Shown one piece after another: positions 13,411 to 55,855 of a DNA stretch of 64,000 bases. A program made the translations under genes and the position numbers. Origin of the DNA: an uncultured Oscillospiraceae bacterium (GTDB lineage Bacteria > Bacillota > Clostridia > Oscillospirales > Acutalibacteraceae); assembly GCA_900540535.1 (NCBI GenBank), contig UQGM01000001.1, forward strand, positions 30,148-94,147. The letters run 5' to 3'. Position 1 is the first letter of the stretch. Every line of letters starts with the position of its first letter. Below the pieces are notes generated by a model. The model saw nothing but the letters and a program-made list of their open reading frames with translations, was not told the DNA's origin and made no database searches.

Positions 13411-13479
13411 ATATTATTTTAAGGCAATTAAATGAATTTCTGCTTCTTAATTTTTACTTTGATAAATTATGAAATTTTA

Positions 13480-13655
13480 ATCGCAGGCGGTTACATTTTC
13501 TCATTTCTGCTACTTGGTGTGTGAATTGAAAGCGGACATGTCCGTCGCAGGCACTTATAGTTGTTTTTCGCTGACAATCCGTGTGCGTTTTGCCTGCAAG
13601 CTCAGCTTGCTGCGACTTGGGTGCAGGCTCAGCCTGCGCTTGATTTTAGTGAAAA
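13480..13655 (-). repeat. Copy R1 of the modular palindromic-unit repeat family (short, reverse orientation; A/B modules only)
   Basis: Contains GCGGACATGTCCGC, GCAAGCTCAGCTTGC and GCAGGCTCAGCCTGC palindromes. CGCAGGCACTTATAGTTGTTTTT is the reverse complement of the B module. TTGGTGTGTGAATTG is the reverse complement of the tail. Confidence 0.8.
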
Positions 13656-14739: not shown

Positions 14740-15020
14740 AATAATTTTTTCAAACAATTGTGGAAAACGACGTTTTAAAAATCGTTGTTTTCCATATTTT
14801 TTTGTACTTTTTTTGGTGTGTATCCATAAAAATATGAGTTTAAAATGCATTTAATCAGGTTTTTAACATCTTTCAACAGGTTCTCCACAGGAATTATAAA
14901 CATTTTCAACATAGTTTTTCACATTTTTTTCATGAGCAGGAGTTGCACTGAAAGGTGCAACTTTTCCCCTATTACATCTTATATATGAAAGCTATTAAAC
15001 TCATCATTGAAAGGAAGTAA
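14740..15020. promoter_or_regulatory. Candidate oriC half / dnaA promoter region with a cluster of degenerate DnaA boxes
   Basis: TGTGGAAAA (14758), TTTTCCATA (14788), TATCCATAA (14821), TTCTCCACA (14881) and TTTTTCACA (14916) are each 1-2 mismatches from TTATCCACA. AT-rich. Confidence 0.5.
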
Positions 15021-15157
15021 AAATTATGTTAAAATTATTTGGTAATGAAAATGGGGTATTGTGCGAAAATAGACCTGATTATTTCGACAGAAAAGACCGG
15101 TTTCCATGGACTGAAACGACGGTTAAGGTATTACCCGATGAGATTAAGGAGCAAGAT

Positions 15158-16510
15158 GAAATGAATTCCCTTCAGGAAATTTGGACCCGTGTTCTCGAAC
15201 ACTGCAAAGGAAAAATGACAGAGGTAGCTTTTGATACCTGGATAAAACCTCTGGAGCTTACGGATTTTGAAGACGGAGTATTTGTAATTGCCGCAGATGC
15301 TGAATTTTCAAGAACCCTTGTAGAAAACAAGTTTTCAAAAACTCTTGCGGAAGCTTTCGAAAGCGCAACAGGCTTTACAACAGATTTCAGAATTACAGTA
15401 AAAAAAGCCCAGAATACAAAAAATGAAGCCGAACATGAAGATTCAATGGTAAAAACCTCGGACGAGCTTCCGGCAGCATACCGTAAAAAAATCATAAGCG
15501 ACTATACGTTTGATACTTTCGTTGTAGGCTCTTCAAATAAATTTGCCTATGCAGCGGCTCAGTCAGTTGCAAAAAATCCCGGAAAAACCTATAATCCGCT
15601 TTTCATATACGGAAATTCCGGTCTCGGAAAAACCCACCTTTTAAATGCAATTTGCTGTGAAATTAAAGAAAATAATCCCAATGCCGAAATAATCTATACA
15701 AGCGGCGAAGATTTCACAAATGAGCTTATCTCTTTCCTTACAACGGACAAGCTCACATCAGTTTTCCATAATAAATACAGAAACGCTGATATTCTTTTAA
15801 TCGACGATATCCAGTTCCTTTCCGGTAAGGTCAGAACTCAGGAGGAATTTTTCCATACCTTTGAGACTCTTAACAAAGCCGGAAAACAGATTGTACTTAC
15901 ATCCGACCGTCCTCCCAAGGAGATAATGACACTTGAGGAGAGACTTAAAACAAGATTCGAATGGGGACTTATTGCAGACATTCAGCCGCCGGATCTTGAA
16001 ACAAGAATGGCGATTATCAGAAGAAAAGCCGCTTCTCTTAATTTTGAAATCAGCGACGATGTTATTCAGTATCTCGCTGAGAAAATAAAGAAAAACATCC
16101 GTCAGCTTGAAGGAGCAGTAAAGAAACTCAAAGCCTATAACGATATTGAGGGACATGCACCTTCACTTTCAATGGCTCAGATAGCTATAAAAGATATCCT
16201 CAGCGATACCCAGCCCATTCCCGTAACCGTTGAAAAGATAATAAACGAGGTTGCAAGAACCTTTAATATATCACCGGAAGAGATAAAGGGTAAAAGACAG
16301 GATGCCAACATTTCCGCAGCAAGACAGGTTGCAATCTATGTTGTAAACGAGATTACAGGAATGTCACTTAAAGCGGTGGGAGCTGAGTTTGGAGGCAAGG
16401 ATCACTCTACTATCCTTTATAATATAAGAAAAGTAAAGGATAAAATGAGCAAAAATGCCACCTTTAAAGCGACTGTCACCGATATAATCACCAACATAAA
16501 AGACAGCTGA
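15158..16510 (+). CDS. dnaA: Chromosomal replication initiator protein DnaA (start at MNSLQEIW; ORF-track N-terminal 44 aa probably not translated)
   Basis: Walker A GNSGLGKTHLL. Sensor/box VII motifs. C-terminal DnaA-box-binding HTH (KRQDANISAARQVAIYV). AAGGAG RBS 9 nt upstream of ATG at 15158. Confidence 0.95.
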   Translation, partial: EMNSLQEIWTRVLEHCKGKMTEVAFDTWIKPLELTDFEDGVFVIAADAEFSRTLVENKFSKTLAEAFESATGFTTDFRITVKKAQNTKNEAEHEDSMVKTSDELPAAYRKKIISDYTFDTFVVGSSNKFAYAAAQSVAKNPGKTYNPLFIYGNSGLGKTHLLNAICCEIKENNPNAEIIYTSGEDFTNELISFLTTDKLTSVFHNKYRNADILLIDDIQFLSGKVRTQEEFFHTFETLNKAGKQIVLTSDRPPKEIMTLEERLKTRFEWGLIADIQPPDLETRMAIIRRKAASLNFEISDDVIQYLAEKIKKNIRQLEGAVKKLKAYNDIEGHAPSLSMAQIAIKDILSDTQPIPVTVEKIINEVARTFNISPEEIKGKRQDANISAARQVAIYVVNEITGMSLKAVGAEFGGKDHSTILYNIRKVKDKMSKNATFKATVTDIITNIKDS

Positions 16511-16764: not shown

Positions 16765-17865
16765 ATGAAGATAGTTTGCAGCACTGAAACTCTTTCTCAG
16801 GCATGTCAGAACGTTCAAAGAGCTGTTTCTACAAAAACCTCAATTCCCGCAATTGAGGGTATCTTGTTAAAAGCCGAAAACGGCAGACTATATCTTACAG
16901 GATATGACCTTGAAGTAGGTATCAATACATCAATTGAAGCAAAAGTGGAGCAGGATGGCAGCATTATCCTCAATGCCCGTTATCTCTGCGATATTATCCG
17001 CCGTCTTCCCGATGAGGAAGTAGAGATCGAAGCCGATGCAAGACAGCTTTGCTATATCAGAAGCGGCGAAACAAATTATTCTCTTAACGGAATTTCTGCT
17101 GAGGAGTATCCCGAGCTTCCCAGCGTTACAGGCGGAGCTCCTGTTATTATCGATCAGGGAATACTCAAAAACATGATAAGACAGACTATTTTCGCCGTTG
17201 CCGATAATAACAGCAATGTTGTATATACGGGTATAAAGTTTGAGATAGAAAAAAATCAGATAAAACTTATTGCTGTTGACGGAGTTCGTCTTGCAATAAG
17301 AACAGAAGAAATTGACTATGACGGAGAAGAGCTTTCATTTATCGTTCCGGGAAAGACACTTTCCGAGGTTATGAAGCTTATTGACGAAGAAGAAGCAGAT
17401 GTTTCTCTCGGAGTAGGAAAAAGACATATTGTATTTGAAGTTAACGGATACAGCATTGTTTCAAGACTTCTCGAAGGAGAATTCCTTGATTACAAGAGCG
17501 CTGTTCCCGCATCTTTTGCAACAACAGTAAGAGTAAGCACAAAAACTCTTATGAGCAGTATCGACAGAACTTCTCTGCTGATTACTGACAGACTCAAGAG
17601 CCCTGTAAGATGTATTTTTGATGATAACACCATTAAAATTTCCAGCATCACTTCTCTTGGTACTGCAAATGATAAAATTTTCGCTCAGATTGACGGCGAA
17701 AGAATAGAAATCGGCTTTAACAACAGATTCCTTATTGAAGCTCTCAGAGTATGCGATACAGACGAAGTACTCATAAAGCTCAACAGCCCTGTTTCACCGA
17801 TTATTATTCTTCCTCCAGAGGGAGAAAGTTTCCTGTTCCTGGTGCTTCCGGTAAGACTGAAGTGA
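16765..17865 (+). CDS. dnaN: DNA polymerase III beta sliding clamp
   Basis: 366 aa with conserved three-domain beta-clamp sequence. Position immediately after dnaA. Confidence 0.95.
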   Translation: MKIVCSTETLSQACQNVQRAVSTKTSIPAIEGILLKAENGRLYLTGYDLEVGINTSIEAKVEQDGSIILNARYLCDIIRRLPDEEVEIEADARQLCYIRSGETNYSLNGISAEEYPELPSVTGGAPVIIDQGILKNMIRQTIFAVADNNSNVVYTGIKFEIEKNQIKLIAVDGVRLAIRTEEIDYDGEELSFIVPGKTLSEVMKLIDEEEADVSLGVGKRHIVFEVNGYSIVSRLLEGEFLDYKSAVPASFATTVRVSTKTLMSSIDRTSLLITDRLKSPVRCIFDDNTIKISSITSLGTANDKIFAQIDGERIEIGFNNRFLIEALRVCDTDEVLIKLNSPVSPIIILPPEGESFLFLVLPVRLK

Positions 17866-18400
17866 GCAAACTGAGTTTGCATCCCAGACGCACACCAAGT
17901 AGCAGTAATGGGCAACTATAAATTCCTGCGGGCAAGCTGAGCTTGCAGGCAAAACGTACACGGACTTACAGAAACGAACAACTATAAGTGCCTGCGGCGT
18001 AGTTTCTGAAAAATCAAAGCAGAAACATTAAAGAACAAAGAACTCCACAAACCAATTTTCTGACAGTCGCCCACGTCGGCAAGGGAAAAGACATTGAAAA
18101 CAGAAAAACGTTTACACTTTGACGGTGATAAAATAAAACTTTCAAGTTGCCGTCGGAGGGCATTTAGCTCTAAACTTACCTTGCGCTGATTAGTGCTTAC
18201 TGTTTTGGCAAGCAAAATGCGTTTTTGCTCGACTTTGTCGCTATGGAAAAAAGTATGTGCCCTGCTGCGGCACGAGCAGCAAAACTTACTCATTTATCAG
18301 AGTATGGGTAAGAAGCAGCAAGTTAATTACACACTGACTTACAGAAATGAGAAAATACAGCTTTCTGCGTCAAAGTCTCATAATTTATTAAATTAAAAGT
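17866..18400 (+). repeat. Copy R2 of the modular repeat family (forward; A/B array plus a shortened body with one hybrid stem-loop)
   Basis: GCAAACTGAGTTTGC and GCAAGCTGAGCTTGC palindromes. CTTACAGAAACGAACAACTATAAGTGCCTGCG B module. CACGTCGGCAAGG...TTGCCGTCGG hybrid stem-loop. End motif TTATCAGAGTATGGGTAAGAAGCAGCAAGTTAAT. Confidence 0.85.
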
Positions 18401-18432
18401 GTATGCTCAGCCTGCAAAGGAGGATTTTTCAT

Positions 18433-29204: not shown

Positions 29205-29400
29205 ACAACTTCACACGGGGGCGTATGCCCCGGCGGATTACGGTTTTGCCGAAAGGCAGATTAAAAGGGAATGCGGTCAGATTCCGCAGCAGCCCCCGCT
29301 ACTGTAAAAATGACGAAGACTTTTAGAGCTTAGGCTCTGCCACTGGGAAACCGGGAAGGTTAAGTCTGAGGATGATTTTGAGCCAGGAGACCTGCCGTAG
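29205..29400 (+). ncRNA. Cobalamin (AdoCbl/B12) riboswitch aptamer
   Basis: AAAAGGGAATGCGGTCAGATTCCGCAGCAGCCCCCGCTACTGTAAAA matches the cobalamin core consensus. GCCACTGGGAAACCGGGAAGG plus AGCCAGGAGACCTGCC is the B12 box. Confidence 0.85.
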
Positions 29401-29489
29401 TGCGTTGATTGCTGATTTCGGTGGGAGATCGAGGCGATTCAAGGAAAAAAGCGGATTTTGTATTTTCATTTCCGGTTTCTTTCTCATGC

Positions 29490-29526
29490 CTTAAGCCGAG
29501 CTATCAGCCCGGCTTTTTTGTTTTTC
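29490..29526 (+). terminator. Stem-loop plus T-run between the aptamer and the downstream ORF, read here as the riboswitch attenuator (AAGCCGAGC...GCCCGGCTTTTTTGTTTTT)
   Basis: GC-rich short stem followed by T6GT5, directly after the aptamer and before the RBS and ATG at 29577. The attenuator role is inferred from position. Confidence 0.5.
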
Positions 29527-29576
29527 CCTTTAGGTATGGTGTGAAGCTGCCTAAAAAAGAGAAAGGAAGAAAGAAA

Positions 29577-32216
29577 ATGAAGAAAATCACAAAATCCATT
29601 GTGAGCCTTGTGCTGGTTCTTGCAGTTGTGCTTTCAATGCCCATAAGCATTTCGGCAGCAGAAAAGGTATCTCCAGAAAAGGAATATCTCAGTTATTCCC
29701 AGTTCAGAGGAGAAGCTCTTTCCCAGGGAATAGTTGACGGCAAAACTCCCGTAAGCAAAGAATCCACAGTGGAAAAATGGGGAATCAAATTCGGCACAGG
29801 CTGGAGCGATGTCCCCGGAACTCCCGTTATTGTGGGAGATTATCTTTACTGTCTTGTAGCCGGACAGAGCAAACTCTACCGTGTTGATGCAAATACGGGA
29901 GAAATTTTAAAATCTGTTCCATGCCCGGGAAAAAGTCAGTTCTTTTCAACAATCGCTTATTATGACGGAGTAATCTATGTGCCTCGTGCTGCTGCCGATA
30001 ATGCCGGAGCAGTTATAATAGCTTATGATGAAGAGACAATGGAGCAGCTTTGGATATCCGAACCCTTAGGAGGAGCAAACAACAGAATACAGCCTCTTTC
30101 AGCAGTTACCGGATATGACGGACATATATATGTAGGTGTTTCAGACGGCAGCGCAAGTGAAGGAGCATATGTATGCTTTGATACAGTGGATGAAAATCCT
30201 GAAAGAAGCGATGAGGTAAAAGCTCCTGTATGGACATATAAGCCAGAGAACATGAAGAGCGGATATTACTGGAGTGCCGGCGCAATTGTTGGAGATGCAA
30301 TTATCTTCGGCGGCGAGGCAACAGAGCTTGTTATCCACAGCCTTACTGAGGATAAGGTATATGATACACTTGTTTTAGAGCCCGGTGCAGCATCCGGAAT
30401 AAGAAGCAGCGTCCACTATGATGCAAAGACAAACAGAGTGTTTGTAGCTCTTAAAAGCGGAAATATATATTCCGTAAAGCTTTCAGGTGACAATACCTTT
30501 GATACTTCTTCTATGATCAAGATCAATATCGGTAATGATATTACATCAAGTCCTGTTGTATTCGGTGACAGACTGTACATCGGCGGCGGCGGAATTTCCT
30601 CCGGCAACGGATTCACAGTTATGAACAGCGAAACCCTTGAGATTATCTATCAGATAGATGAAGTAAAAACACAGGCATCACCCATAGTCACCACTGCCTA
30701 TGCCACAGAGGAAAACGGCTATGAAGTTAAGATGTATGTAACAGGCTTCGGCGGAATCGGTTCCGGCGGATATGATCCCACATCATCATGTGTTTACATG
30801 ATAACTGACCGTCAGGGTCAGACTGAGCCGGAATATGAGATAATTGCAACTCCTTCACAGCTTCAGTACTGTACCCAGAGTGCGGCAATCGGTGGTGATG
30901 GCTCAATTTACTTCTATAATGACAGCGGAACAATGTACTGCTTTAGCCATAAAGATGCCGCAGACGGTGAATACACTGCAAAAGATATGATAAACGCCAT
31001 ATCCCTGTTTGATTTCACAGGTGTAACTGAGCGTGACGAATACCGTCTTAACAGATTAAAGCTTCGCTATGATTTAATGAGTGACAGCGAAAAGGCAAAG
31101 GTTACAAACTACGAAAGCCTTGAAGAGATGCTCGAAAAAATAGAAAATCTCAAGAACGAGGAAAAGATTGTAGCCGAGCTTAATGAGTACATTAAAAATG
31201 TAAATCCCGACGAGCTTACACTTAAAGACAGCGATACAGTAAACAGCTGGTATGCAAAATACAATGCACTTTCCACTGAGAGCAAAGCTCTTGTAGAAAA
31301 TTCAGAGAAGTTTTTAAAATGCGTTGCGGTTATAGAAAATCTTAAAAATCAGGATGCGGCGGCAAATCTCAATAAGAAAATAGCCGAGCTTCCCGATGCT
31401 GATAAAGTCACACTTAAAGACAGAGATAAAATTTTAGAAGTTCTTGCTCTTTACGAAATGCAGAATGACGAAGTAAAGAAAATGTGTGACAGTGAAAAGC
31501 TCCTTGCAGCTGCTGACAGAGCAAATGAGCTTTTTACAAAGGTTCAGGCTATTGATGAAAGAATCTTTAATGAAATAGATCCCCTCAATATTACTTTGGA
31601 AACAGAAAAATGTGTTTCAGAGCTCGAAAAGGAATATTCACTTCTTTCAGAAACCGACAGAGAATATGTAACACGTTATGATGACGTACTTTTTGCAAGA
31701 AAAGTTATAGACTCACTTAAAAAGGGAGTTATCATTTCAGAAATGCTCATGAACCTTGCAGGTTCTCCCGATGCATATACAGCAGAGTATGAAAATGCAG
31801 TATTTTCATTTAAGGGCACTGATATTACAGACCCCACAAAGGACTTTAATATTTCAGTAACCTTCGGTGGAGATTCCGAAAGCGATATCAAGGCTCTTTA
31901 TGCCGATGCATTTGTATTTACTCTTAACCATGAGGGCGCTCTTCCTGCAAAAACTCAGATAACCCTCAAAACTTCTCTTAAAGACGGCGAGTATAAGATT
32001 TACCGCTTTGAAAACGGCGAAGCTGTATCAGTAGGTGACGGAGTTTGTGAAAACGGCTCACTTAAATTTACAGCTCAGGACGGCGGAATTTATTTTGCTG
32101 TTCCCGTAAGCACATCAAATCCCGGAAATCTCGGTGACAATATAATTTCACTGGGAGCTATGGGCGGCGCATCACTTCTTGCAGTGCTGCTGTTAGGAAA
32201 AAGAAAAAAGCGCTGA
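29577..32216 (+). CDS. Large cell-surface protein: signal peptide, PQQ-like beta-propeller, helical repeat region, C-terminal hydrophobic anchor plus KRKKR tail
   Basis: Signal peptide MKKITKSIVSLVLVLAVVLSMPISISAAE. Repeated GD-LY-(V/G) beta-propeller blades. About 45-aa internal repeats (LKDSD/LKDRD...). C-terminal GAMGGASLLAVLLLGKRKKR. ORF-track 5' 56 codons overlap the riboswitch and are spurious. Confidence 0.7.
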   Translation: MKKITKSIVSLVLVLAVVLSMPISISAAEKVSPEKEYLSYSQFRGEALSQGIVDGKTPVSKESTVEKWGIKFGTGWSDVPGTPVIVGDYLYCLVAGQSKLYRVDANTGEILKSVPCPGKSQFFSTIAYYDGVIYVPRAAADNAGAVIIAYDEETMEQLWISEPLGGANNRIQPLSAVTGYDGHIYVGVSDGSASEGAYVCFDTVDENPERSDEVKAPVWTYKPENMKSGYYWSAGAIVGDAIIFGGEATELVIHSLTEDKVYDTLVLEPGAASGIRSSVHYDAKTNRVFVALKSGNIYSVKLSGDNTFDTSSMIKINIGNDITSSPVVFGDRLYIGGGGISSGNGFTVMNSETLEIIYQIDEVKTQASPIVTTAYATEENGYEVKMYVTGFGGIGSGGYDPTSSCVYMITDRQGQTEPEYEIIATPSQLQYCTQSAAIGGDGSIYFYNDSGTMYCFSHKDAADGEYTAKDMINAISLFDFTGVTERDEYRLNRLKLRYDLMSDSEKAKVTNYESLEEMLEKIENLKNEEKIVAELNEYIKNVNPDELTLKDSDTVNSWYAKYNALSTESKALVENSEKFLKCVAVIENLKNQDAAANLNKKIAELPDADKVTLKDRDKILEVLALYEMQNDEVKKMCDSEKLLAAADRANELFTKVQAIDERIFNEIDPLNITLETEKCVSELEKEYSLLSETDREYVTRYDDVLFARKVIDSLKKGVIISEMLMNLAGSPDAYTAEYENAVFSFKGTDITDPTKDFNISVTFGGDSESDIKALYADAFVFTLNHEGALPAKTQITLKTSLKDGEYKIYRFENGEAVSVGDGVCENGSLKFTAQDGGIYFAVPVSTSNPGNLGDNIISLGAMGGASLLAVLLLGKRKKR

Positions 32217-32284
32217 TTTAACAAGGAAAAAATTAAAAAATAGAAGTTCTTATCAAATCTTGTACTAATTAAAGTTTTTAATAT

Positions 32285-33175
32285 TATGTACTTTTGTCCA
32301 TAGCGACAAAAGTACCAAAAACGCATTTAATAAGCCTTGACGGTTTTCGCTCTGAGTTTATCTGCCTTTAGAAGGTGTCTCGGTAAATCGCCGGCAGGCA
32401 GAGCCTGCACCCAAGTCGCACACTAAATGACAGTGAAAAACAACTAAATATTCCTGCGTTTAAAATAAAAGCTAATCGCAGGCGCACATATATTTTTCAT
32501 TGCTCTCTTTTGGTGTGCGAAATAAAGGCGGATATGTCCGCCTCGCTCTCCGAACAGCTTACAGCAATACGAAAAGCCGCAAGGCTATCGCACTGCTTAC
32601 TCTCATTTCTGCCGGGTGAGCGTGGCAGCGTGACGCTGCACCCAAGTCGCACACCAATTGACTGCTAAAAATAAATATCGTTGCCTGCGATGAAATTATA
32701 TGTAAACTAAAAAAGCAAAGAGCAGAAACCAAAGAACCACATAAAACCAACTCTCCGACATTCGCACACGTCGGCAAGGAAATAGATATGGACAGCAGAA
32801 CAGCGTTTACGCTTTGCTGGTGATAGCTTAAGCTCTCCAAACTGCCGACGTGAATTGGTGAACGCTTGCTGAGCCTAACCGACGGCAAAGGAAAGAATAT
32901 GGCAAACAGTAAAACGTTTACTGTTTGAGGGTAATAAAAAATAATCCTCCAAACTGCCGTCGGTGGGCGTGTGGGAGAAAACTTACTTTGCGCTGATTAG
33001 GGATTACTGTTTTGGCAAATAAAATGCGTTTTTGCCTACTTTTGTCGCTACGGACAAAAGTAGGTGCACCGCCGCAGCATGAGCGGCAAAACTTATTCGT
33101 TTATCAAAGTGCGGGTAAGAAGCAGCAAGTTAATCCCGCCAGGCTCAGCCTGCAATTAAAAAGAAAGGATGGGGC
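32285..33175 (+). repeat. Copy R3 of the modular repeat family (full length; mosaic with inverted fragments at the 5' end)
   Basis: GCAGCGTGACGCTGCACCCAAGTCGCACACC. Two 85-87 nt stem-loops (CACGTCGGCA...TGCCGACGTG and CCGACGGCAA...TGCCGTCGG). End TTATCAAAGTGCGGGTAAGAAGCAGCAAGTTAAT. Confidence 0.85.
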
Positions 33176-33194
33176 GTTGTCCCTGAAAAAGAAA

Positions 33195-33917
33195 ATGAAA
33201 AAGACTGCCTCACTTACTTTATCTCTTCTTATTTTAATAACAGTAATTTTCTCAGGATGTAAAATTGAATTTCCTGAAGATATTCCCACCGATAACATCG
33301 GTGTATCTGACAGCGAAACCGAAAACTATATAAATGACAGTTCCGAGAGGGAAGAAAAAGACACATCAGCTTCCGAAAACAAGGAAGAGGATAAAAATAC
33401 CTCCTCTTCACAAGAGACTGACACTGAGAAAGAGACTCAGTCTCAGCAGGAAAGACCTGCTCCCGTTGACGACAATAAGCCGGCAGATAAAACAAAGGTC
33501 AACTACTGCACACTTTCCGTTGACTGCCTTACCATTCTCGACAATATGGATAAATTTAATAAGGATAAACTTTCCGTACTTCCAAAGGACGGAATTATAT
33601 ATAAAGAGCGAAAAGTAATTTTTTATGAAGGCGAAACGGTTTTTGACGTACTTAACCGTGAAATGAAGAAAAACAGAATACATATGGAGTTTGAAAATAC
33701 TCCCATGTATAACAGCAATTACATTGAGGGAATCGGAAATCTTTATGAGTTCGACTGCGGAGATCTCTCAGGCTGGACTTACAGCGTAAACGGTTGGTAT
33801 CCCAATTACGGATGCAGCGGATATAAGCTTAAAGACGGCGATGTAATAAAATGGCGCTATACCTGTGACCTTGGCCGTGATGTAGGCGATCAGTGGTTTG
33901 AGGAAAATAACCGATGA
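33195..33917 (+). CDS. DUF4430-domain lipoprotein (transcobalamin/intrinsic-factor-like domain), acidic linker
   Basis: Lipobox VIFSGC. S/E/D-rich linker. C-terminal GETVFDVL...TYSVNGWYPNYGCSGYKLKDGDVIKWRY typical of DUF4430. True start MKKTASL at 33195. Confidence 0.7.
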   Translation: MKKTASLTLSLLILITVIFSGCKIEFPEDIPTDNIGVSDSETENYINDSSEREEKDTSASENKEEDKNTSSSQETDTEKETQSQQERPAPVDDNKPADKTKVNYCTLSVDCLTILDNMDKFNKDKLSVLPKDGIIYKERKVIFYEGETVFDVLNREMKKNRIHMEFENTPMYNSNYIEGIGNLYEFDCGDLSGWTYSVNGWYPNYGCSGYKLKDGDVIKWRYTCDLGRDVGDQWFEENNR

Positions 33918-34798
33918 ATACACCATTTGCCTCACTTCATCCCATTGTGCTGTTTCTGTTTTTCATTTTCGCCGCCGGATTTTCAATGTTCTTAATGCAT
34001 CCGGTTTTTCTTGTGATTTCTTTTATCTGTGCTTTCAGCTACTGCGTTTATCTTAAAGGTAAAAAAGGCATTAAATCCTTAGGGTTGTTTTTACCTGTTG
34101 TGATTTTTGCCGCCATAATCAATGCCGCATTTAACCATGAGGGAATTACAATTCTTGTTTATGTAAACGATAATCCCATTACTTTGGAATCACTTATCTA
34201 TTCCCTTGCCGCTGCCCTTATGCTTTTAGGGGTGCTTTTGTGGTTTTCATGTCTTAACGAGGTAATGACCTCCGATAAGCTCATGTGTATATTCGGAAAA
34301 ATTTCTCCGTCCATTGCCATTTTGTTTTCAATGACTTTAAGATTTGTGCCGAGATTTTCCGCACAGCTTAAAAAGATAAACTATGCGCAGAAATGCATAG
34401 GCAGAAGCTATGATACAGGCGGATTTTTCACAAAATTAAGAAATGGTGTGAAAATCCTCTCAATACTTATTACCTGGGCTTTGGAAAACGCAGTGGAAAC
34501 TGCCGATTCCATGAAGAGCAGAGGCTGGGGACTTAAAGGACGCACTTCCTTTTCCGGCTTCCGCTTTGATAAACGTGATGCTCTGTCCCTTACCGCCATA
34601 CTTATTTTAGTTTCTGTTATATTTGCAGGACTTTTAATGGGAGAGGGCAGGATAAACTATTATCCTGCAATTGTACTTTCCGATTTTTCATTTTTCGGTT
34701 TGGTCGTCTATATTTCATATTTTCTCTTAATGGCCTTTCCGCTTATATTCAGTCTTACGGAGGACTTTAAATGGTATCGTTTGAAATCAAAAATCTGA
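33914..34798 (+). CDS. ECF transporter transmembrane (T) component, EcfT/CbiQ family
   Basis: Multi-TM protein with a conserved arginine-containing coupling-helix region (RFVP...AQ..G..SR). Overlaps neighbouring genes. Confidence 0.7.
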   Translation: MNTPFASLHPIVLFLFFIFAAGFSMFLMHPVFLVISFICAFSYCVYLKGKKGIKSLGLFLPVVIFAAIINAAFNHEGITILVYVNDNPITLESLIYSLAAALMLLGVLLWFSCLNEVMTSDKLMCIFGKISPSIAILFSMTLRFVPRFSAQLKKINYAQKCIGRSYDTGGFFTKLRNGVKILSILITWALENAVETADSMKSRGWGLKGRTSFSGFRFDKRDALSLTAILILVSVIFAGLLMGEGRINYYPAIVLSDFSFFGLVVYISYFLLMAFPLIFSLTEDFKWYRLKSKI

Positions 34799-36438
34799 GT
34801 TTTTCCTATCCATTGGGAGAGGGAAAAGCTCTTGATAATATAAATTTAAAAATTGAAAAAGGTGAGTTCGCCGTTATATGCGGAAAATCAGGCTGCGGCA
34901 AAACCACATTGCTCCGTCATTTAAAGCCTGCAATCACTCCACACGGAAAACGTGAGGGTGAAATATTTTTTGAGGGCAGGGAGATAAACTCTTTGTCACA
35001 GAGAGAAGCTGTATCTAAAATAGGATACGTCATGCAGAGCCCTGAAAATCAGATAGTAACCGATAAAGTATGGCATGAGCTTTCCTTTGGCCTGGAATCC
35101 CTTGGGGAAGAGCCTCGCCGCATAAGGCTTAAAGTTGCGGAGATGGCAAGCTTTTTCGGCATACAGCAGTGGTTCAATAAGGGAGTGGAGGAGCTTTCCG
35201 GCGGACAAAAGCAGCTTTTGAATCTCGCCTCCATAATGGCAATGCAGCCTCAGGTGATTATTCTCGACGAGCCCACCTCCCAGCTTGACCCAATAGCTGC
35301 CGCCGATTTTTTGGCAGCTGTTAAAAAAATAAACTCCGCTTTGGGAGTTACGGTTATAATTTCGGAGCACCGTCTCGAAGAGGTAATTCCCCTTGCAGAT
35401 AAAGTTATTGTAATGGATGAGGGCAGAATCTTTTCATGTTCTCCCTGTGAAGCCTATTCGGTTTTAAAGAAAATGGGCAATCCCATGGCAGAAGCCATGC
35501 CGGCGCCTGTTCAGATAGCGGCTGGGATTTCAGAACACGGTAAAATTGAGGGATACGAGGATAAACTTCCCCTTACTGTACGTGACGGCAGGATTTTCCT
35601 TTCGGAGTACATGAAAGATAAAATCCCGGCGGAAAAAGAGACAGAGGAAAAAATTTCTCCGAAAAATCTTCCCGATGCAATAAAAGTACATGATCTGTGG
35701 TTCAGATATGAGAAAAAAGGCGCTGACATAATAAAAGATCTCAATTTCTCAGTTAAAAAGGGAACTTTCCACGCTGTTTTGGGCGGAAACGGAGCGGGTA
35801 AAACCACTCTTCTTTCCCTTATTTCAGGTAATTTAAAAGCATACAGAGGAAAAATTACCCTTGGAGAAAAGGGGGATAAACTAAAAATAGCACTTCTTCC
35901 CCAGAATCCCCAGACGCTTTTTGTAAAGAAAACTCTTCTTGAGGATATAGAAGAGGGTATAGATGTAAAAATGAGCCGTGAAGAAAAGGAACAAACGGCA
36001 CGTGAGGCAGCTCAAAGAGTTCATCTCCAGAATCTTCTTTCACGTCATCCCTATGATCTGAGCGGAGGCGAACAGCAGAGAGCCGCCCTTGCAAAGGTGC
36101 TCCTTACAAAACCGGATATCCTTTTACTGGACGAGCCTACAAAGGGTCTTGACTGCTGCTTTAAAAAGGAGCTCGCTGAGATTATAAAGGAGCTTAACTC
36201 TCAGGGAGTTACAGTAATCGCCGTATCCCATGATATAGAGTTCTGCGCCGAGTATGCGGATTTTTGCACTTTGCTTTTCTGCGGCGAAGCGGTTTCAACG
36301 GCAGTGGCAAGGGAGTTTTTCACAGGAAACAGCTTCTATACTACCGCTGCAAACAGAATGAGCCGTTTTGTCTTTCCATATGCCGTTACAAATGAGGAGG
36401 TTATCAGAGCGTGTCTTGCCTCAAAGGAGAAAATTTAA
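34771..36438 (+). CDS. Fused tandem ECF ATPase (EcfA-EcfA', CbiO-like)
   Basis: Two ABC cassettes. Walker A GKSGCGKTT and GGNGAGKTT. Signatures LSGGQKQ and LSGGEQQ. Walker B ILDEPT and LLDEPT. Confidence 0.9.
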   Translation: MVSFEIKNLSFSYPLGEGKALDNINLKIEKGEFAVICGKSGCGKTTLLRHLKPAITPHGKREGEIFFEGREINSLSQREAVSKIGYVMQSPENQIVTDKVWHELSFGLESLGEEPRRIRLKVAEMASFFGIQQWFNKGVEELSGGQKQLLNLASIMAMQPQVIILDEPTSQLDPIAAADFLAAVKKINSALGVTVIISEHRLEEVIPLADKVIVMDEGRIFSCSPCEAYSVLKKMGNPMAEAMPAPVQIAAGISEHGKIEGYEDKLPLTVRDGRIFLSEYMKDKIPAEKETEEKISPKNLPDAIKVHDLWFRYEKKGADIIKDLNFSVKKGTFHAVLGGNGAGKTTLLSLISGNLKAYRGKITLGEKGDKLKIALLPQNPQTLFVKKTLLEDIEEGIDVKMSREEKEQTAREAAQRVHLQNLLSRHPYDLSGGEQQRAALAKVLLTKPDILLLDEPTKGLDCCFKKELAEIIKELNSQGVTVIAVSHDIEFCAEYADFCTLLFCGEAVSTAVAREFFTGNSFYTTAANRMSRFVFPYAVTNEEVIRACLASKEKI

Positions 36439-37154
36439 AAAGACGAAATAACAGACATATTTTACTTTCATGTCTTATAATACTTATAGTTATCCCTGCT
36501 GTAATAGCTTTCGGAATTATATTTTTAGGTGACAGAAAATATTATCTTATAAGCCTTGCAATAATTCTTCTTACAATGCTGCCCTTTTTCATGTCCTTTG
36601 AAAACCGCAAACCGTCGGCAAGGGAAATTGCAGTAATTGCCGCAATGTGCGCCATCGGAGTTGCGGGCAGGGGAGCTTTCTTTATGCTGCCCCAGTTTAA
36701 GCCCATGGTTTCCATTGTGATTATAACGGGAATATGTTTCGGAGCCGAAAGCGGATTTCTCACCGGAGCTATGACGGCTTTTGTATCCAATTTCTTTTTC
36801 GGACAGGGCCCCTGGACTCCATGGCAGATGTTCTGCTGCGGAGTAATAGGTTTTCTTGCGGGACTTATTTTCGGCAGAAAACCCATAACAAAGAAAGATT
36901 ATCCCTTTGTTGTAATTTTCGGCGGACTTTCTACGGTTATAATCTACGGCGGACTTATGAACCTTTCCACACTTTTTTCTTCAGTGGTGGCTATAAACTG
37001 GCAGACGGTGCTTTCAATTTACGCTTCCGGGCTGCCTTTCGACCTTGTTCATGCCGCTGCGACAGTTTTTTTTCTTATTATTGCCCTTAAGCCCTTGACG
37101 GAAAAGCTGTATAGAATTAAAATAAAGTATGGGTTAATGTCTATAGAAGAATAA
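36411..37154 (+). CDS. Putative ECF-type substrate-specific (S) component (cobalamin-specific by context)
   Basis: 247 aa, about 6 TM, small integral membrane protein following the T-AA' module. Start codon uncertain. Confidence 0.5.
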   Translation: MSCLKGENLKRRNNRHILLSCLIILIVIPAVIAFGIIFLGDRKYYLISLAIILLTMLPFFMSFENRKPSAREIAVIAAMCAIGVAGRGAFFMLPQFKPMVSIVIITGICFGAESGFLTGAMTAFVSNFFFGQGPWTPWQMFCCGVIGFLAGLIFGRKPITKKDYPFVVIFGGLSTVIIYGGLMNLSTLFSSVVAINWQTVLSIYASGLPFDLVHAAATVFFLIIALKPLTEKLYRIKIKYGLMSIEE

Positions 37155-44291: not shown

Positions 44292-44324
44292 TTGTACAAT
44301 AAAAGAATTAACAAGGGTGTAGGA

Positions 44325-45045
44325 GACGATATTTAATGTTAGCTGCGATTTGGTGTGCGGCTTCTTACCCGAACTCTGATAAATGAACAAGTTTTAACGC
44401 AGGCACTTATACTTTAGTGCGCCGTATCTTGGTGTGCGAATTAAATCAGGCTTAGCCTGTGCCGCTCATGCTGCGGTGGAGCACATACTTTTGTCCATAG
44501 CGACAAAAGTAGGCAAAAGCGCATTTGCGGCGGAGTTCCGCCGCCTTGTCAAAACAGAAAGCACTAATCAGCGCAAAGTAAATTTTCTCCCATACGTCCT
44601 CCGACGGCAGCCCCAAAGGTTTTATGCTGTCACCGTCAAACAGTAAACGTTTTACTATTTTCTATATTCTTTCTCTTGCCGTCGGTTAGGCACGGTAAGC
44701 GTTTACAAATTCACGTCGGCAGTTTTAACAGTTTTAATTTATCACCGTCATACTGTAAACGTTTTACTACTTTCCATATTTTTTCCTTTGCCGACGTGGG
44801 CGGCGGACACGTCCGCTTTCATTTCGCACACAAAAATACAGCGTTAGGAAAATATAAGTGCCTGCGATGAGGGTTTATTTTAGACGCAGGAATATATAAT
44901 TGTTTATTGCAGTCAGTTAGTGTGCGAATTGCCTGCAAACTCAGCTTGCCCGCAGGCACTTATAGTTGTTTTTACCCGTCAGTTCGTGTGCGGCTTACGT
45001 GCAGGTTTAACCTGCTGCTGCTGACTTGTATTTATGTCAATATTG
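44325..45045 (-). repeat. Copy R4 of the modular repeat family (body in reverse orientation with forward A/B modules at the right end)
   Basis: Reverse complements of the end motif (GCTTCTTACCCGAACTCTGATAAATGA), of the GGCGGCGGAACTCCGCCGCC hairpin, and of the long stem-loops. Forward GCGGACACGTCCGC...AAGTGCCTGCGATG. GCAGGTTTAACCTGC. Confidence 0.85.
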
Positions 45046-48433: not shown

Positions 48434-49150
48434 ATGTATGTTTCACGTGAAACATTAATACAAGAGTGCGGCGAAATCGGAATTGAGCTGAATGAAAAGC
48501 AGCTCAGTGATTTTGAAAAATTCGCCGAAATGGTTGTGGAAACAAATAAGCATTTGAACCTTACGGCGATCACCGACCCTGAGGGAATAGCCGTAAAGCA
48601 TTTTACCGACAGCCTTACGCTCCTTACGGCAATTGATATACCGGAAGGGGCAAAGGTACTGGATGTGGGAACCGGCGGCGGATTCCCGGCAGTGCCCATT
48701 ATGATTGCAAGACGTGATATTGATATGACAATGGTGGATTCCACCGCAAAGCGTCTGAAATTTGTGGATTCGGCAGTGGAAGCCCTTTCCCTTAAGGGAG
48801 TTACCGTTCATTCCAGGGCGGAGGAGCTCGGCAAAAACAAAGCTTACCGTGAAAAGTTTGATTTTGTCACTGCAAGAGCCGTTGCAAATCTCCGTGACCT
48901 TTCGGAATATTGTCTGCCATTTGTAAAACAAGGCGGATTCTTTATAGCCATGAAAGGTCCCCTTGCTTCTGAGGAAATTAAGGACGCACAGAACGCTATC
49001 AAGATACTGGGCGGAGAAATCAAGGAGATAAAAAACATAACTCTTTCCGATGCAGGGGAAAGAAATATGGTTATGATAAAAAAGATATCGCAAACTCCGC
49101 CAAAATATCCACGCCCCTCGGCACAAATCGCAAAGCGACCCCTCGTTTAA
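48434..49150 (+). CDS. rsmG: 16S rRNA (guanine527-N7)-methyltransferase RsmG (GidB)
   Basis: SAM-binding LDVGTGGGFPAVP. Follows mnmG with a small overlap. Start at MYVSRETL assumed. Confidence 0.9.
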   Translation: MYVSRETLIQECGEIGIELNEKQLSDFEKFAEMVVETNKHLNLTAITDPEGIAVKHFTDSLTLLTAIDIPEGAKVLDVGTGGGFPAVPIMIARRDIDMTMVDSTAKRLKFVDSAVEALSLKGVTVHSRAEELGKNKAYREKFDFVTARAVANLRDLSEYCLPFVKQGGFFIAMKGPLASEEIKDAQNAIKILGGEIKEIKNITLSDAGERNMVMIKKISQTPPKYPRPSAQIAKRPLV

Positions 49151-50216: not shown

Positions 50217-50432
50217 ATCCTAATTTTATATGTAAAAAATCTTTTATAATTTTTGATAGCTTGTGTTATGAGGCTTCATGCAAAAATGGATTAAAATATA
50301 GTTTTACAGATACGCTTCTTAAGAGATAAAGTATTTATAGTTTTTTGTTTCAAACATATGAGAGAAGATAGTCCATAAAATATTCTATATTTTACTTGTT
50401 GAGTGTATTTGAAGTGTATAGTAAGTTAAATG

Positions 50433-50951
50433 TTATATTTCGCCTTCATATTCCATTGACCGCATACGCATACTTCCATCCAATTTTTGAAATTCACCAT
50501 ATCTCACAAAATGCAGTCCGCATTTCTTCATGACATTTCCGGATGCAAGATTCGGTTCACAATGAGATGATGCAAATTTTCGTGCTCCAAAATTTCTATG
50601 TACATAATTTATCATCGCTTTTGTAGCTTCCGTAGCATATCCCATTCCCCAGCAATCATATCGAAAATTATAGCCGAATACCCAATATCCTTTTTTGTCA
50701 TCAAAACCTATATCTCCGCTTCCAATCAATTTTCCGTCGGAAATACGCTCAAATCCAAAATTATATGTACTTTTATCCTGTTCAGCAAAGGAAAGCCATT
50801 TTTTCACTTGCTCTATATCTGTATATGTGTTATAAACCATGTATTTTGAAACTCGTTCATCGCTAACCCATTCAAATACATCATTTGCGTCGGAAATTTT
50901 TAAAGGGCGTAATAGTAGACGATCTGTTTTTATATAAATTTCATTACTCAT
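50433..50951 (-). CDS. GNAT-family N-acetyltransferase (RimJ/RimL-like)
   Basis: N-terminal LLLRPLKISDANDVFEWVSDERV. Acetyl-CoA-binding region (Q/R-x-x-G-x-G/A-like). Start likely MSNEIYI. Confidence 0.7.
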   Translation of the reverse strand: MSNEIYIKTDRLLLRPLKISDANDVFEWVSDERVSKYMVYNTYTDIEQVKKWLSFAEQDKSTYNFGFERISDGKLIGSGDIGFDDKKGYWVFGYNFRYDCWGMGYATEATKAMINYVHRNFGARKFASSHCEPNLASGNVMKKCGLHFVRYGEFQKLDGSMRMRSMEYEGEI

Positions 50952-51288
50952 AGCACTTTTTCCTTCCTTTTGCAAATTTGTATTTACTAAACTTTTAACA
51001 ATTGCATTATAACATTTAGGTATAAATTTTTCTATTGTTTCTATACTTTTAAAAATAGCAGCGATGTTCCCTTATCGATAGTCACTAAGAATGAAATTTG
51101 ACAATCCACGATAAGGGCTCTTTTATTTACAGACGAAAAGTGAGGAAAGTTTTGCTTTAGAAAATTACTGTTTCCTGCATTGATTTCCATATCTTAATGT
51201 TTTAACAATCCAATTGAACTGTTATTTTTAAATGGTTAAGTATTAAAGAATGCGCAACTGTGAGAAAAATGTGGAAAATCAGGTATAA

Positions 51289-51885
51289 TGTTTCACGTGA
51301 AACAGTGGCTTAGTCTGTGCCGCTCATGCCGTGGCGAGATCAACTTGCAGCTTCTTACCCGCACTTTAATAAATGATAAAGTTTCGCCACTCATGCCGCA
51401 GCAGGGCACATACTTTTGCCCGTAGCGAGCAAAGTCAAGCAAAAACGCATTTGCAGCGGTGTACCGCCGCTTTGCCAAAACAAAAAGCATTAATCAGCGC
51501 AATGTCAGTTTTCTCCTACACGCTCTCCGACGGCAGCTTGGAGGGATTCTTTATATCACCGTCAAAGTGTAAACGTTTTACCGCTTACCACATTCTTTCA
51601 TTTGCCGTCGGTTAGGAACAGCAAGCGTTCGCCAATTCACGTCGGCAGTTTGGAGGGGTACGTTTTATCACCTACAAAGCGTAAACGCTGTACTGCTATC
51701 CATATCTTTTCCCTTGCCGACGTGTGCGGCTGTCGGGGAGTGGGTTTTATGTTGTTCTTTGGTTTCTGCTCTTTGTTTTGTAGTTTACATATAACTTTAT
51801 CTCAGGAATTAATATTTATTTTTAGCTGTCATTTGGTGTGCGACTTGAGTACAGCGTCACGCTGCGTTTCACGTGAAACATTTCA
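51289..51885 (-). repeat. Copy R5 of the modular repeat family (reverse orientation), bounded at both ends by the 14-bp palindrome GTTTCACGTGAAAC
   Basis: Reverse complements of the end motif, of the two long stem-loops (CCGACGGCAG...CTGCCGTCGG; CACGTCGGCAG...CTGCCGACGTG) and of a GCAGCGTGACGCTG A-module. GTTTCACGTGAAAC at 51291 and 51869. Confidence 0.85.
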
Positions 51886-54989: not shown

Positions 54990-55745
54990 AGCAGCAGGCT
55001 GAGCCTGCACCCAAGTCGCAGCAGCGTGACGCTGCACCCAATTCGCACACCGGCTGACAGAAACGAGAAACTATACGTGCCTGCGTGCAAACTGAGTTTG
55101 CATCCAAGTTGCACAGCAGGTTAAACCTGCACATAATTCGCACACGGACTTACAGTAATAAGAAAATATAACCGCCTGCGGCGGACACGTCCGCTTTCAA
55201 TTCGCACACCAAGCGTCACCCAAAAATAAATATTAATGCCTGCGATGAAGTTACATGTAAACTAAAAAAGCAAAGAGAAGAAACCCAAGAACCACATAAA
55301 AGCAACTCCCTGACAGTCGCCCACGTCGGCAAGGGAAAAGATATGGCAAGTAGTATAACGTTTGCACTTTGTTGATGATAAAATGTACCCCTCCAAGCTG
55401 CCGACGTGAATTGGTGAACGCTTACACTCACTAACCGACGGCAAGAGAAAAGAATTCGATAGTAAAAAAACGTTTACTGTGCGTTGGTGATAAAAACTAA
55501 TCTTCCAAACTGCCGTCGGAGGGCGTGTGGAAGAAACTTACCTTGCGCTGATTAGTGCTTACTGTTTTGGCAAGGCGGCGGGACTCCGCCGCAAATGCGT
55601 TTTTGCTTCCTTTTGCCGCTATGGGCAAAAGGAAGTGCACGCCACGGCATGAGTGGCGAAACTTTATTATTTATCAGAGTTCAGGTAAGAAGCCGTAAGT
55701 TAATTTCGCCATGGCATAAATGGCAAGACTTACTCGTCTATCAAA
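54990..55745 (+). repeat. Copy R6 of the modular repeat family (forward; best-preserved copy: five-unit A/B array, two 87-nt stem-loops, hairpin-rich 3' body, tandemly duplicated end motif)
   Basis: GCAGGCTGAGCCTGC, GCAGCGTGACGCTGC, GCAAACTGAGTTTGC, GCAGGTTAAACCTGC and GCGGACACGTCCGC, each followed by ACCCAAGTCGCA-like tails. Stem-loops 55322..55408 and 55434..55520. GCGGCGGGACTCCGCCGC and TTCCTTTTGCCGCTATGGGCAAAAGGAA hairpins. Confidence 0.9.
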
Positions 55746-55855
55746 GTAAAAATGAAGAAGCAAAATAACATATAATATCTTTATCACATTTTCTTACATC
55801 CAACATTAAAACTTTAACCTTGAAAATTACTGCCATGTACAGGCAGTGTATATAA

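Follow-up and report, generated by a model that had tools for sequence, protein, structure and literature searches.

Hairpin-rich mosaic repeats occupy six intergenic loci around the replication origin of an uncultured Oscillospiraceae bacterium

What kind of sequence fills the intergenic stretch at positions 54990-55745 of a 64,000-nt segment of contig UQGM01000001.1 (assembly GCA_900540535.1, positions 30,148 to 94,147 of the forward strand), which comes from an uncultured Oscillospiraceae bacterium? A first-pass annotation of this segment, hereafter the window, had proposed that the stretch is one of six intergenic loci sharing a composite hairpin-rich element in both orientations. Self-comparison of the window and profile searches bear this out. 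Direct and inverted segments of 70-300 nt, 75-93% identical, link six intergenic loci at 13477-13650, 17865-18400, 32264-33150, 44325-45020, 51300-51870 and 54990-55745, which total ~3.7 kb or 5.7% of the window, close to the 6% first estimated. A profile hidden Markov model built from the window copies matched a core of ~440 nt at exactly five window loci, with E-values from 1e-94 to 1e-159, and the matches of a 66-nt short-unit profile were confined to the six regions. The core motif TTGCGCTGATTANNNNTTNNTGTTTTG, with 21 specified bases, occurs five times in the window against an expectation of 0. Copies 2, 3 and 6, numbered from the left, lie on the + strand and copies 1, 4 and 5 on the - strand, and these paralogues are merely 72-83% identical to one another. 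The six stretches are thus confirmed as true copies of an undescribed, non-coding and hairpin-rich repeat family.

The element is assembled from three parts, namely P-Q units, the ~440-nt core and an H5-tail unit, in the overall order P-Q(n), core, H5-tail(n), where n varies among copies and among strains. P is a perfect hairpin of 14-15 nt, most commonly GCAGGC-TGA-GCCTGC, with a 6-bp stem that exists in at least eight variants; it is followed by AYCCAAGTCGCA, and the conserved box AYCCAAGTCGCACAC sits on its 3' side. Q consists of CACAC, ~22 semi-conserved bases and ACTATAAGTGCCTGCG. The complete P-Q unit measures 64-66 nt and contains the 15-nt perfect hairpin with the boxes TCGCACAC and TATAAGTGCCTGCG. 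P is also found alone, whereas P-Q stands singly, in tandem arrays of up to five or in inverted doublets. The core opens with an A-rich linker (AAACCAAAGAACCACA), followed by S1 and S2, stem-loops that are tandem paralogues of each other. Next come an invariant block (TTGCGCTGATTA..TGTTTTGGCAAG), a GC hairpin that is optional, and the motif AAATGCG, and the hairpins H4 and H5 close the core. The tail of the family reads AAACTT..TTTATCARAGT-NNN-GGGTAAGAAGCAG-MAAKTTAAT, and the 3' pattern TTATCAGAGT..GGTAAGAAGC..AAGTTAAT was recovered. H5 and tail together form a repeat unit in its own right, of which copy 6 has two. The layout first drawn, with 5' hairpin units, 3' hairpins and a tail, therefore stands, except that its two 87-nt stem-loops measure 87 nt (S1) and 85 nt (S2).

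Module content was said to differ among copies, and indeed we find short, full-length, single-stem-loop and inserted-unit forms. In short forms such as copy 1 the tail is joined straight onto the P-Q units; copy 1 has no core, which corrects the proposal of one composite element at all six loci. Full-length forms, represented by copy 3 and by loci L004, L010, L015/L028, L017 and L040 of relatives, gain an X domain of ~300 nt on the 5' side and an inverted H4-tail arm, neither of which was noted in the first-pass annotation. The inverted arms are 45-110 nt long, lie ~850 nt apart and are seen in full-length forms only. X comprises a long covarying hairpin, GGTAAATCGCCG..CGGCGATTTACC, and a further hairpin, GGAAAAGC-TTT-GCTTTTCC, and has an A-rich loop (TGCG-AAAA) and a GCAA tetraloop (GCC-GCAA-GGC). 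In copy 3 an inverted P-Q doublet stands in for part of X. Copy 2 and locus L041 have a single hybrid S1/S2 stem-loop, and in seven copies (copy 4 and six from relatives) a P-Q unit is placed between H5 and the tail.

Covariation was tested with a hand-drawn structure of 62 pairs in seven helices on an alignment of 30 cores, in which 91% of the alignment cells are paired. Changes on both sides were found in 16 pairs, compared with 9.3 ± 1.7 in shuffled alignments, none of 500 of which reached 16. The covariation score was 0.130, against 0.084 for the shuffles and 0.025-0.047 when the pairing partners were slid. The signal is located in H4 (CG/UA/AU and UA/CG), H5 (GC/AU) and the GC hairpin. 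In addition, the P hairpins are 94% Watson-Crick paired over their stem variants, and the long hairpin of X shows pair-preserving changes. Since covariation exceeds both kinds of control, the compensatory stem changes claimed at first pass are real, and the example taken from H4 is genuine covariation between copies. The second example, CACGTCGGCA/TGCCGACGTG versus CCGACGGCA/TGCCGTCGG, was misread as a change between copies: the outer stems of S1 and S2 are almost invariant across the 30 copies, and what was compared are the two paralogous stems inside every copy.

Constraint extends beyond the stems. Copies differ from each other at 7% in family-conserved columns and at 54% in variable columns (Fisher p 1e-39), a rate heterogeneity that recent common descent alone cannot produce; constraint acts on about half of the core. 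Purifying selection on “orthologous” copies, judged against 4-fold degenerate sites, was considered and set aside because copies at the same site are not simple orthologues; the contrast is read as constraint at the level of the family only. About half of the core positions are near-constant in every copy and the stems change only in ways that preserve pairing, so the family is not decaying junk.

How the copies change over short times can be seen at the same loci in other strains, which were recovered by look-up of the window proteins and have flanks 98-100% identical to those of the window. The spacer between serS and the GH2 gene exists in four alleles. The window form measures 956 nt. In L041 (746 nt) the 3' half, from the 3' arm of S2 on, is ~100% identical to the window and the 5' half is a different member of the family, while L040 (514 nt) has four P-Q units and a tail with no core, and the L004 allele is ~320 nt long. 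The first P hairpin of copy 6 (54994-55008), GCAGGCTGAGCCTGC, corresponds to GCAGGTTAAACCTGC in L041 (3634-3648), a difference of three transitions that keep the palindrome. Three alleles were found at the parA site, where L040 and L041 have a short element together with a full-length element containing X, the window lacks ~640 nt relative to these two, the missing stretch reaching from parS to a P hairpin, and L004 has a core in the opposite orientation. Among strains with an identical DnaN protein, the dnaN-yaaA spacer occurs in four alleles: the window form; a version of it in which a further P unit of 29 nt directly follows the stop codon; another member of the family, oppositely oriented; and an element-free spacer with an open reading frame (ORF) of 178 amino acids. 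This ORF, which takes the place of the element at L045:3248-3784 (also in L047, L049 and L050), has no Pfam match. The junctions between alleles lie either where a P hairpin begins or ends, or within the S2 stem. Within one species, then, the alleles of a locus differ in whole modules that have been gained, lost, inverted or replaced, with junctions at hairpin edges, a turnover between strains that the first-pass annotation did not mention. Over longer distances, the copies at the mnmE site of three genomes are ~21% diverged both where the 4-fold sites of their hosts differ by 14-24% and where these differ by 35-43%; divergence at this site is unrelated to that of the hosts, which indicates that copies at one site are replaced faster than the hosts diverge.

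The family appears to be confined to one lineage. An exact-motif scan of one genome per species found it only in four uncultured Oscillospiraceae species known from metagenome-assembled genomes (MAGs), with 1-5 matches each. The genes flanking the element in the window are 85-95% identical to those of these MAGs, which places the window in the same clade. A metagenome scan yielded 13 contigs with the element, several of them labelled human gut. No similar sequence was present in 72,556 plasmids, 50,697 phage records or IMG/VR; the viral pattern matches, and some of those to genomes, were discarded as chance matches. In the Rfam scan of the window at gathering threshold only a cobalamin riboswitch and a tRNA were returned, and permissive scans, run on copies 3 and 6 and on L004, had best E-values of 0.04-1, far under the gathering scores. 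ROOL, GOLLD, OLE, HEARO, raiA and group I and II introns were among the families scanned. The initial impression of a family not yet described is supported. A description of it was found neither in full-text literature searches nor in 200 supplementary files from a gut structured-RNA catalogue.

Nor does the element seem to encode anything. Over 30 copies no ORF is conserved on either strand, any one stop position being common to at most 15 of the 30 and frames and lengths being inconsistent, as the first-pass annotation had stated on the basis of the window. A small protein or a repeat of the type I toxin-antitoxin kind was rejected, as there is no conserved small hydrophobic ORF among the 30 copies. 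A CRISPR array or the repeats of a type III antitoxin were likewise rejected: the Q “spacers” are themselves conserved, and neither cas nor toxin genes adjoin the element. When all flanking ORFs at ~30 loci were clustered, only orthologous housekeeping genes were returned, and no protein gene recurred beside the element. Pfam searches detected no recombinase gene in the window or in the 10 kb that flank it at each end, and no Y1 or RAYT gene in the window or its annotated flanks or recurring beside the element at the ~30 loci.

We therefore interpret the family as an interspersed DNA repeat, mosaic and non-coding, which is restricted to one lineage, recombines at its hairpins and is functionally closest to the REP/BIME and BOX repeats, a reading to which we assign a probability of roughly one half. 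The hairpins would form in DNA made single-stranded by replication or transcription. There they might act as joining or template-switch points, or else a trans-acting enzyme specific for hairpins, of the RAYT/IS200 HUH type and not found here, might use them as substrates, and modules could thereby be copied, exchanged and deleted between copies. If only copies that keep the core and the hairpins can join the exchange, or are tolerated, this would explain the constraint. Effects on neighbouring genes may follow as well. In seven loci the 5' P hairpin starts 0-12 nt past a stop codon, and read-through from the neighbouring gene would add a block of very stable RNA hairpins to the transcript, which makes 3'-end protection and insulation likely by-effects of the element.

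The family shares several features with the REP sequences and BIMEs of Enterobacteria and Pseudomonas. These are also short, GC-rich extragenic palindromes with fixed linkers, arranged as mosaics, direct arrays and inverted doublets; the number of units at a given locus differs from strain to strain, many are found directly behind stop codons, and they are long conserved. However, P is a perfect palindrome with a 6-bp stem in at least eight variants, whereas REP is an imperfect palindrome of ~35 nt with a 5' GTAG (GT(A/G)G), and BIMEs have no counterpart to the conserved structured core of ~440 nt (up to ~850 nt). REPINs are mobilised by RAYT Y1 transposases; here no RAYT was found in the window or flanks, and the host is a gut anaerobe of the class Clostridia. 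BOX elements of Streptococcus pneumoniae (boxA-boxB(n)-boxC) share the fixed module order with one module in variable number, and they too are intergenic, occur in both orientations, have strong predicted secondary structure, and lack an ORF and a known mobilising enzyme. Compared by description, they differ in their size of 100-300 nt and in having no large constrained core, and the repertoire here (P, Q, S1/S2, H4, H5-tail and X) is larger. A mosaic intergenic repeat is a known kind of element, but a constrained core of 440-850 nt and cassette-like exchange at palindromic joints are atypical of that kind.

Several observations weigh against a repeat that spreads and recombines in this manner. 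Neither a mobilising enzyme nor an autonomous relative was found, nor were there target-site duplications or a conserved target motif. The replaced segments have no near-identical donor, none exceeding 88% identity in the sampled loci, so that copy-and-paste is inferred and not seen, and ordinary homologous exchange between strains, involving whole intergenic regions, could account for some of the allele differences. The related MAGs contain only 1-5 exact-motif copies each. Finally, a 440-nt core with long conserved unpaired stretches, and with GNRA-type loops in X, exceeds the needs of known REP, BOX or MITE (miniature inverted-repeat transposable element) sequences and points to a sequence-specific role in RNA or in protein binding.

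The main alternative we consider possible but tentative: the core with or without X (450-850 nt) would be a family of genes for a large structured non-coding RNA, with its own promoter and acting through conserved loops and junctions, while P-Q would be a REP-like repeat in its own right, accumulating next to the core as well as within it. Long invariant unpaired blocks that adjoin covarying stems, the ~7-fold rate difference between column classes, and the conserved GCAA tetraloop, A-rich (GAAAA) loop and pair-preserving changes of X would suit an RNA. The independence of P-Q from the core, seen in core-less short forms and in insertions into X and between H5 and the tail, would suit a separate repeat. 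OLE, ROOL, GOLLD and HEARO (omega) RNAs lie in the same size range of 450-850 nt and have many hairpins with conserved loops and junctions, and HEARO is in addition multi-copy and linked to mobile DNA. Unlike these RNAs, the element has no Rfam match, no fixed transcriptional context and no associated IscB or TnpB gene, and its copies are truncated and reshuffled between strains, with cores deleted, halved (copy 2, L041) or absent in close strains with no obvious replacement.

The strands, moreover, look alike. The stem changes had been taken at first pass as a pointer to RNA or single-stranded DNA, but wobble pairs and folding energy tell apart neither the molecule nor the strand. G:T and A:C mismatches number 31 and 22 in the robust helices and 9 and 5 in the P hairpins, with no strand asymmetry. 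Predicted folding energy is equal on both strands (p = 0.58), and the folding z-scores of -2 to -5.7, which by themselves would favour a structured RNA, are obtained on both. The GCAA tetraloop of X is the sole hint of RNA. No conserved promoter or terminator consensus was found in the element copies. Orientation to the flanking genes is random: among the 22 loci with genes on both sides, the left and right neighbours were in the same/same orientation in seven, opposite/opposite in seven, same/opposite in six and opposite/same in two, and one antisense copy lies within dnaN-yaaA. Together with the mixed orientation in the right replichore (three copies +, two copies -), this is more readily expected of a DNA repeat than of a dedicated transcription unit.

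A narrower version of the DNA-repeat reading, which we find doubtful, holds that the element is non-autonomous and is mobilised in single-stranded DNA form by a Y1/HUH transposase whose gene lies elsewhere in the genome, in the manner of REPIN/RAYT or of IS200/IS605 PATE elements, with the P hairpins as recognition sites. Small GC-rich hairpins with a conserved adjacent box, occurring singly, in tandem or as inverted doublets, would be expected of such a system, as would insertions of single units beside an existing hairpin, breakpoints at hairpin edges, and the lack of terminal inverted repeats or target-site duplications in most copies. But no Y1 gene was detected in the window or annotated flanks, and no gene recurs as a neighbour across the ~30 element-bearing loci. 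The P stem has only 6 bp, no fixed tetra- or pentanucleotide precedes the element (the 5' flanks read ..TTTCTA, ..AAGTGA, ..GTGAAAC and ..ATCAAGC), and there is no strand bias in the right replichore.

A bolder proposal would take the 450-850-nt core (X, S1, S2, the invariant block, H4 and H5) as a new class of large structured nucleic acid, either an RNA of OLE/ROOL size or a fold of single-stranded DNA, that spreads and exchanges modules between chromosomal sites by means of its own hairpins and with no element-encoded protein. The P hairpins would then be the joints of a non-coding “cassette” system. We regard this as speculative and rather unlikely.

We consider it improbable that the element is a classical MITE, that is, a deletion derivative of a DDE transposon with the inverted H4-tail arms as its terminal inverted repeats. 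The arms of 45-110 nt that lie ~850 nt apart in copy 3, L004, L010, L015/L028, L017 and L040 suggest such ends. Yet the left arm is missing from most of the 30 aligned copies, which keep the conserved core nonetheless; there is no target-site duplication at the tail or P-end flanks; conservation is higher in the interior than at the ends, opposite to the pattern of a MITE; and no parent element with the same ends was found in ~40 loci, plasmids, phages or viral contigs, a limited sample. An apparent target-site duplication at copy 5, the 15-nt repeat TGTTTCACGTGAAAC, was rejected because it is the parS consensus, with a third site at 48439. Other interspersed intergenic repeats of 100-400 nt, bcr of the Bacillus cereus group and the Correia and ERIC types of MITE, are comparable in that some have conserved folds with compensatory changes and in being co-transcribed with neighbouring genes, but the ones known to be mobile are equipped with terminal inverted repeats and target-site duplications, whereas here no duplication was found and the arms are mostly absent. 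The description “BOX/MITE-like” in the first-pass annotation is accordingly a fair analogy, although the classical features of a MITE, a target-site duplication and a parent insertion sequence, were not found.

In ssoA-type origins of rolling-circle plasmids, an RSB box is followed on the same strand, ~50 nt 3', by CS-6 (TAGCGT/A) in a terminal loop, and the origin is orientation-specific. That the element is a relic or functional analogue of a rolling-circle replicon origin, a single-strand origin with a nick site acting on single-stranded DNA, is very improbable: the best local match of the whole consensus in pC194 is the RSB box of palA (GAGAAAACTTACTTTGCGCTGA versus GAGAAAATTTATTGTGCGTTGA, 18/22; window 55531-55552, pC194 (L056) 2177-2198), the same box matches pE194 (L043) at 649-664 and the reverse-complemented tail resembles the nick region of pC194, but these matches fall short of significance (E 0.16 for the RSB box, with 9 of 300 shuffles scoring equally high), a CS-6-like TAGCGA occurs only on the opposite strand, in the H4 loop, the geometry is unlike palA, the orientation relative to replication is mixed, and there is neither a Rep gene nor a plasmid match.

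For studies of the spread and persistence of BOX- and BIME-like mosaics, the family offers a useful case. Its modules are large and recognisable, the junctions at hairpin edges can be read from the sequence, and several alleles per locus are available in public human-gut metagenomes of near-identical strains, so that gains, losses, inversions and replacements could be dated and the mechanism inferred from population data. The constrained 440-nt core, being beyond the known needs of such repeats, may also represent a new large structured RNA. On the practical side, the elements create spurious ORFs, sit in operons (dnaN-yaaA-recF and the B12-riboswitch operon) and are hypervariable markers that could serve to type strains of an uncultured gut lineage.

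Copy 6 displays most of the modules in order on the + strand. Its 5' array (54994-55244) comprises P (54994-55020), P-Q (55021-55085), P (55087-55113) and two further P-Q units (55116-55180 and 55181-55244), with hairpins that include GCAGGCTGAGCCTGC, GCAGCGTGACGCTGC, GCAAACTGAGTTTGC, GCAGGTTAAACCTGC and GCGGACACGTCCGC. The A-rich linker (55245-55321), with conserved AAACCMAAGAACCACA..AAAAC..GACAGTCGC, leads to S1 (55322-55408, 87 nt), whose stem CACGTCGGCA/TGCCGACGTG is 98.6% paired and nearly invariant and encloses a conserved interior of ~65 nt, and to its tandem paralogue S2 (55435-55519, 85 nt), with the stem CCGACGGCA/TGCCGTCGG. The invariant block (55543-55574) reads TTGCGCTGATTAGTGCTTACTGTTTTGGCAAG. 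It is followed by the optional GC hairpin GCGGCGG-GACT-CCGCCGC (55575-55592; helix 5 of the covariation model, 100% paired with three covarying pairs), which is absent from copies 2 and 3, and by the conserved AAATGCG (55593-55599) 5' of H4. H4 itself (55606-55635; helix 6) is CTTCCTTTTGCC-GCTATG-GGCAAAAGGAAG, in which one pair is CG in nine copies, UA in nine and AU in eight, and another UA in 18 and CG in 11. The first H5-tail unit (55640-55704) consists of CGCCAC-GGCATGA-GTGGCG (helix 7) and the tail AAACTTTATTATTTATCAGAGTTCAGGTAAGAAGCCGTAAGTTAAT, and a second, degenerate one (55707-55769) of GCCATGGCATAAATGGC ... CTATCAAAGTAAAAATGAAGAAGCAAAATAAC. The range first given for this copy, 54990-55745, was thus right as to the locus but short at its end, as the second H5-tail unit carries it to ~55769.

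The remaining copies are permutations of the same parts. Copy 1 (13425-13650, -), the short form, has P, P-Q, P-Q and a tail, and lies just left of oriC and dnaA. Copy 2 (17866-18416, +) begins with the first base past the dnaN stop codon and ends ~10 nt ahead of the ribosome-binding site of yaaA; it consists of two P-Q units, the linker, the hybrid stem-loop, the 3' core, a tail, a Q-like unit and half a hairpin. Copy 3 (32264-33160, +), of the full-length type, starts with the inverted H4-tail arm (32264-32325), and the inverted P-Q doublet at 32393-32535 interrupts X, the remainder of which lies at 32536-32622; P-Q, linker, S1, S2, the 3' core, tail and a terminal P hairpin follow. It stands in the sense orientation and takes up ~900 nt between the first and second genes of an operon (29224-37154) that is headed by the cobalamin riboswitch (29224-29413) and includes genes for a β-propeller surface protein, a DUF4430 protein, CbiQ, an ABC ATPase and an ECF S component. 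Copy 4 (44321-45018, -) is antisense to both adjoining genes, and has two P-Q units, an inverted Q-P unit abutting S1, then S2, the 3' core with P-Q between H5 and the tail, and a Q-like end. Copy 5 (51305-51865, -) is composed of P-Q, linker, S1, S2, 3' core, tail, H5 and a degenerate P. A seventh, small member lies ~2.5 kb past the right end of the window (L042:14866-15035); it comprises an inverted P-Q doublet and the start of the S1 stem, and is identical in three strains (L040, L041 and L042).

The replication origin lies inside the window, with the GC-skew minimum at 12-16 kb, dnaA at 15026-16510 and dnaN at 16765-17865; upstream of dnaA just two near-consensus DnaA boxes are present, at 14759 and 14881. 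The genes dnaA, dnaN, yaaA, recF, gyrB and gyrA are found at 15-25 kb, and mnmE, mnmG, rsmG, noc, parA, parB and serS at 45-55 kb. Copies 1 and 2 flank dnaA-dnaN. Seven element sites were counted over the 82 kb that were examined around oriC; the 23 kb to the left had none. These figures only suggest a clustering specific to the origin, and in relatives the majority of copies are found in unrelated contexts. Canonical parS sites, TGTTTCACGTGAAAC(A), are present at 48439-48454, 51289-51304 and 51866-51881. The latter two bracket copy 5 directly upstream of parA and parB, a position at which the syntenic MAG locus L004 has one. Next to this site, ~1 kb of the window (50233-51260) that contains a GNAT acetyltransferase gene (50433-50975, -) is missing from the collinear L004, the flanks of which are 95% identical.

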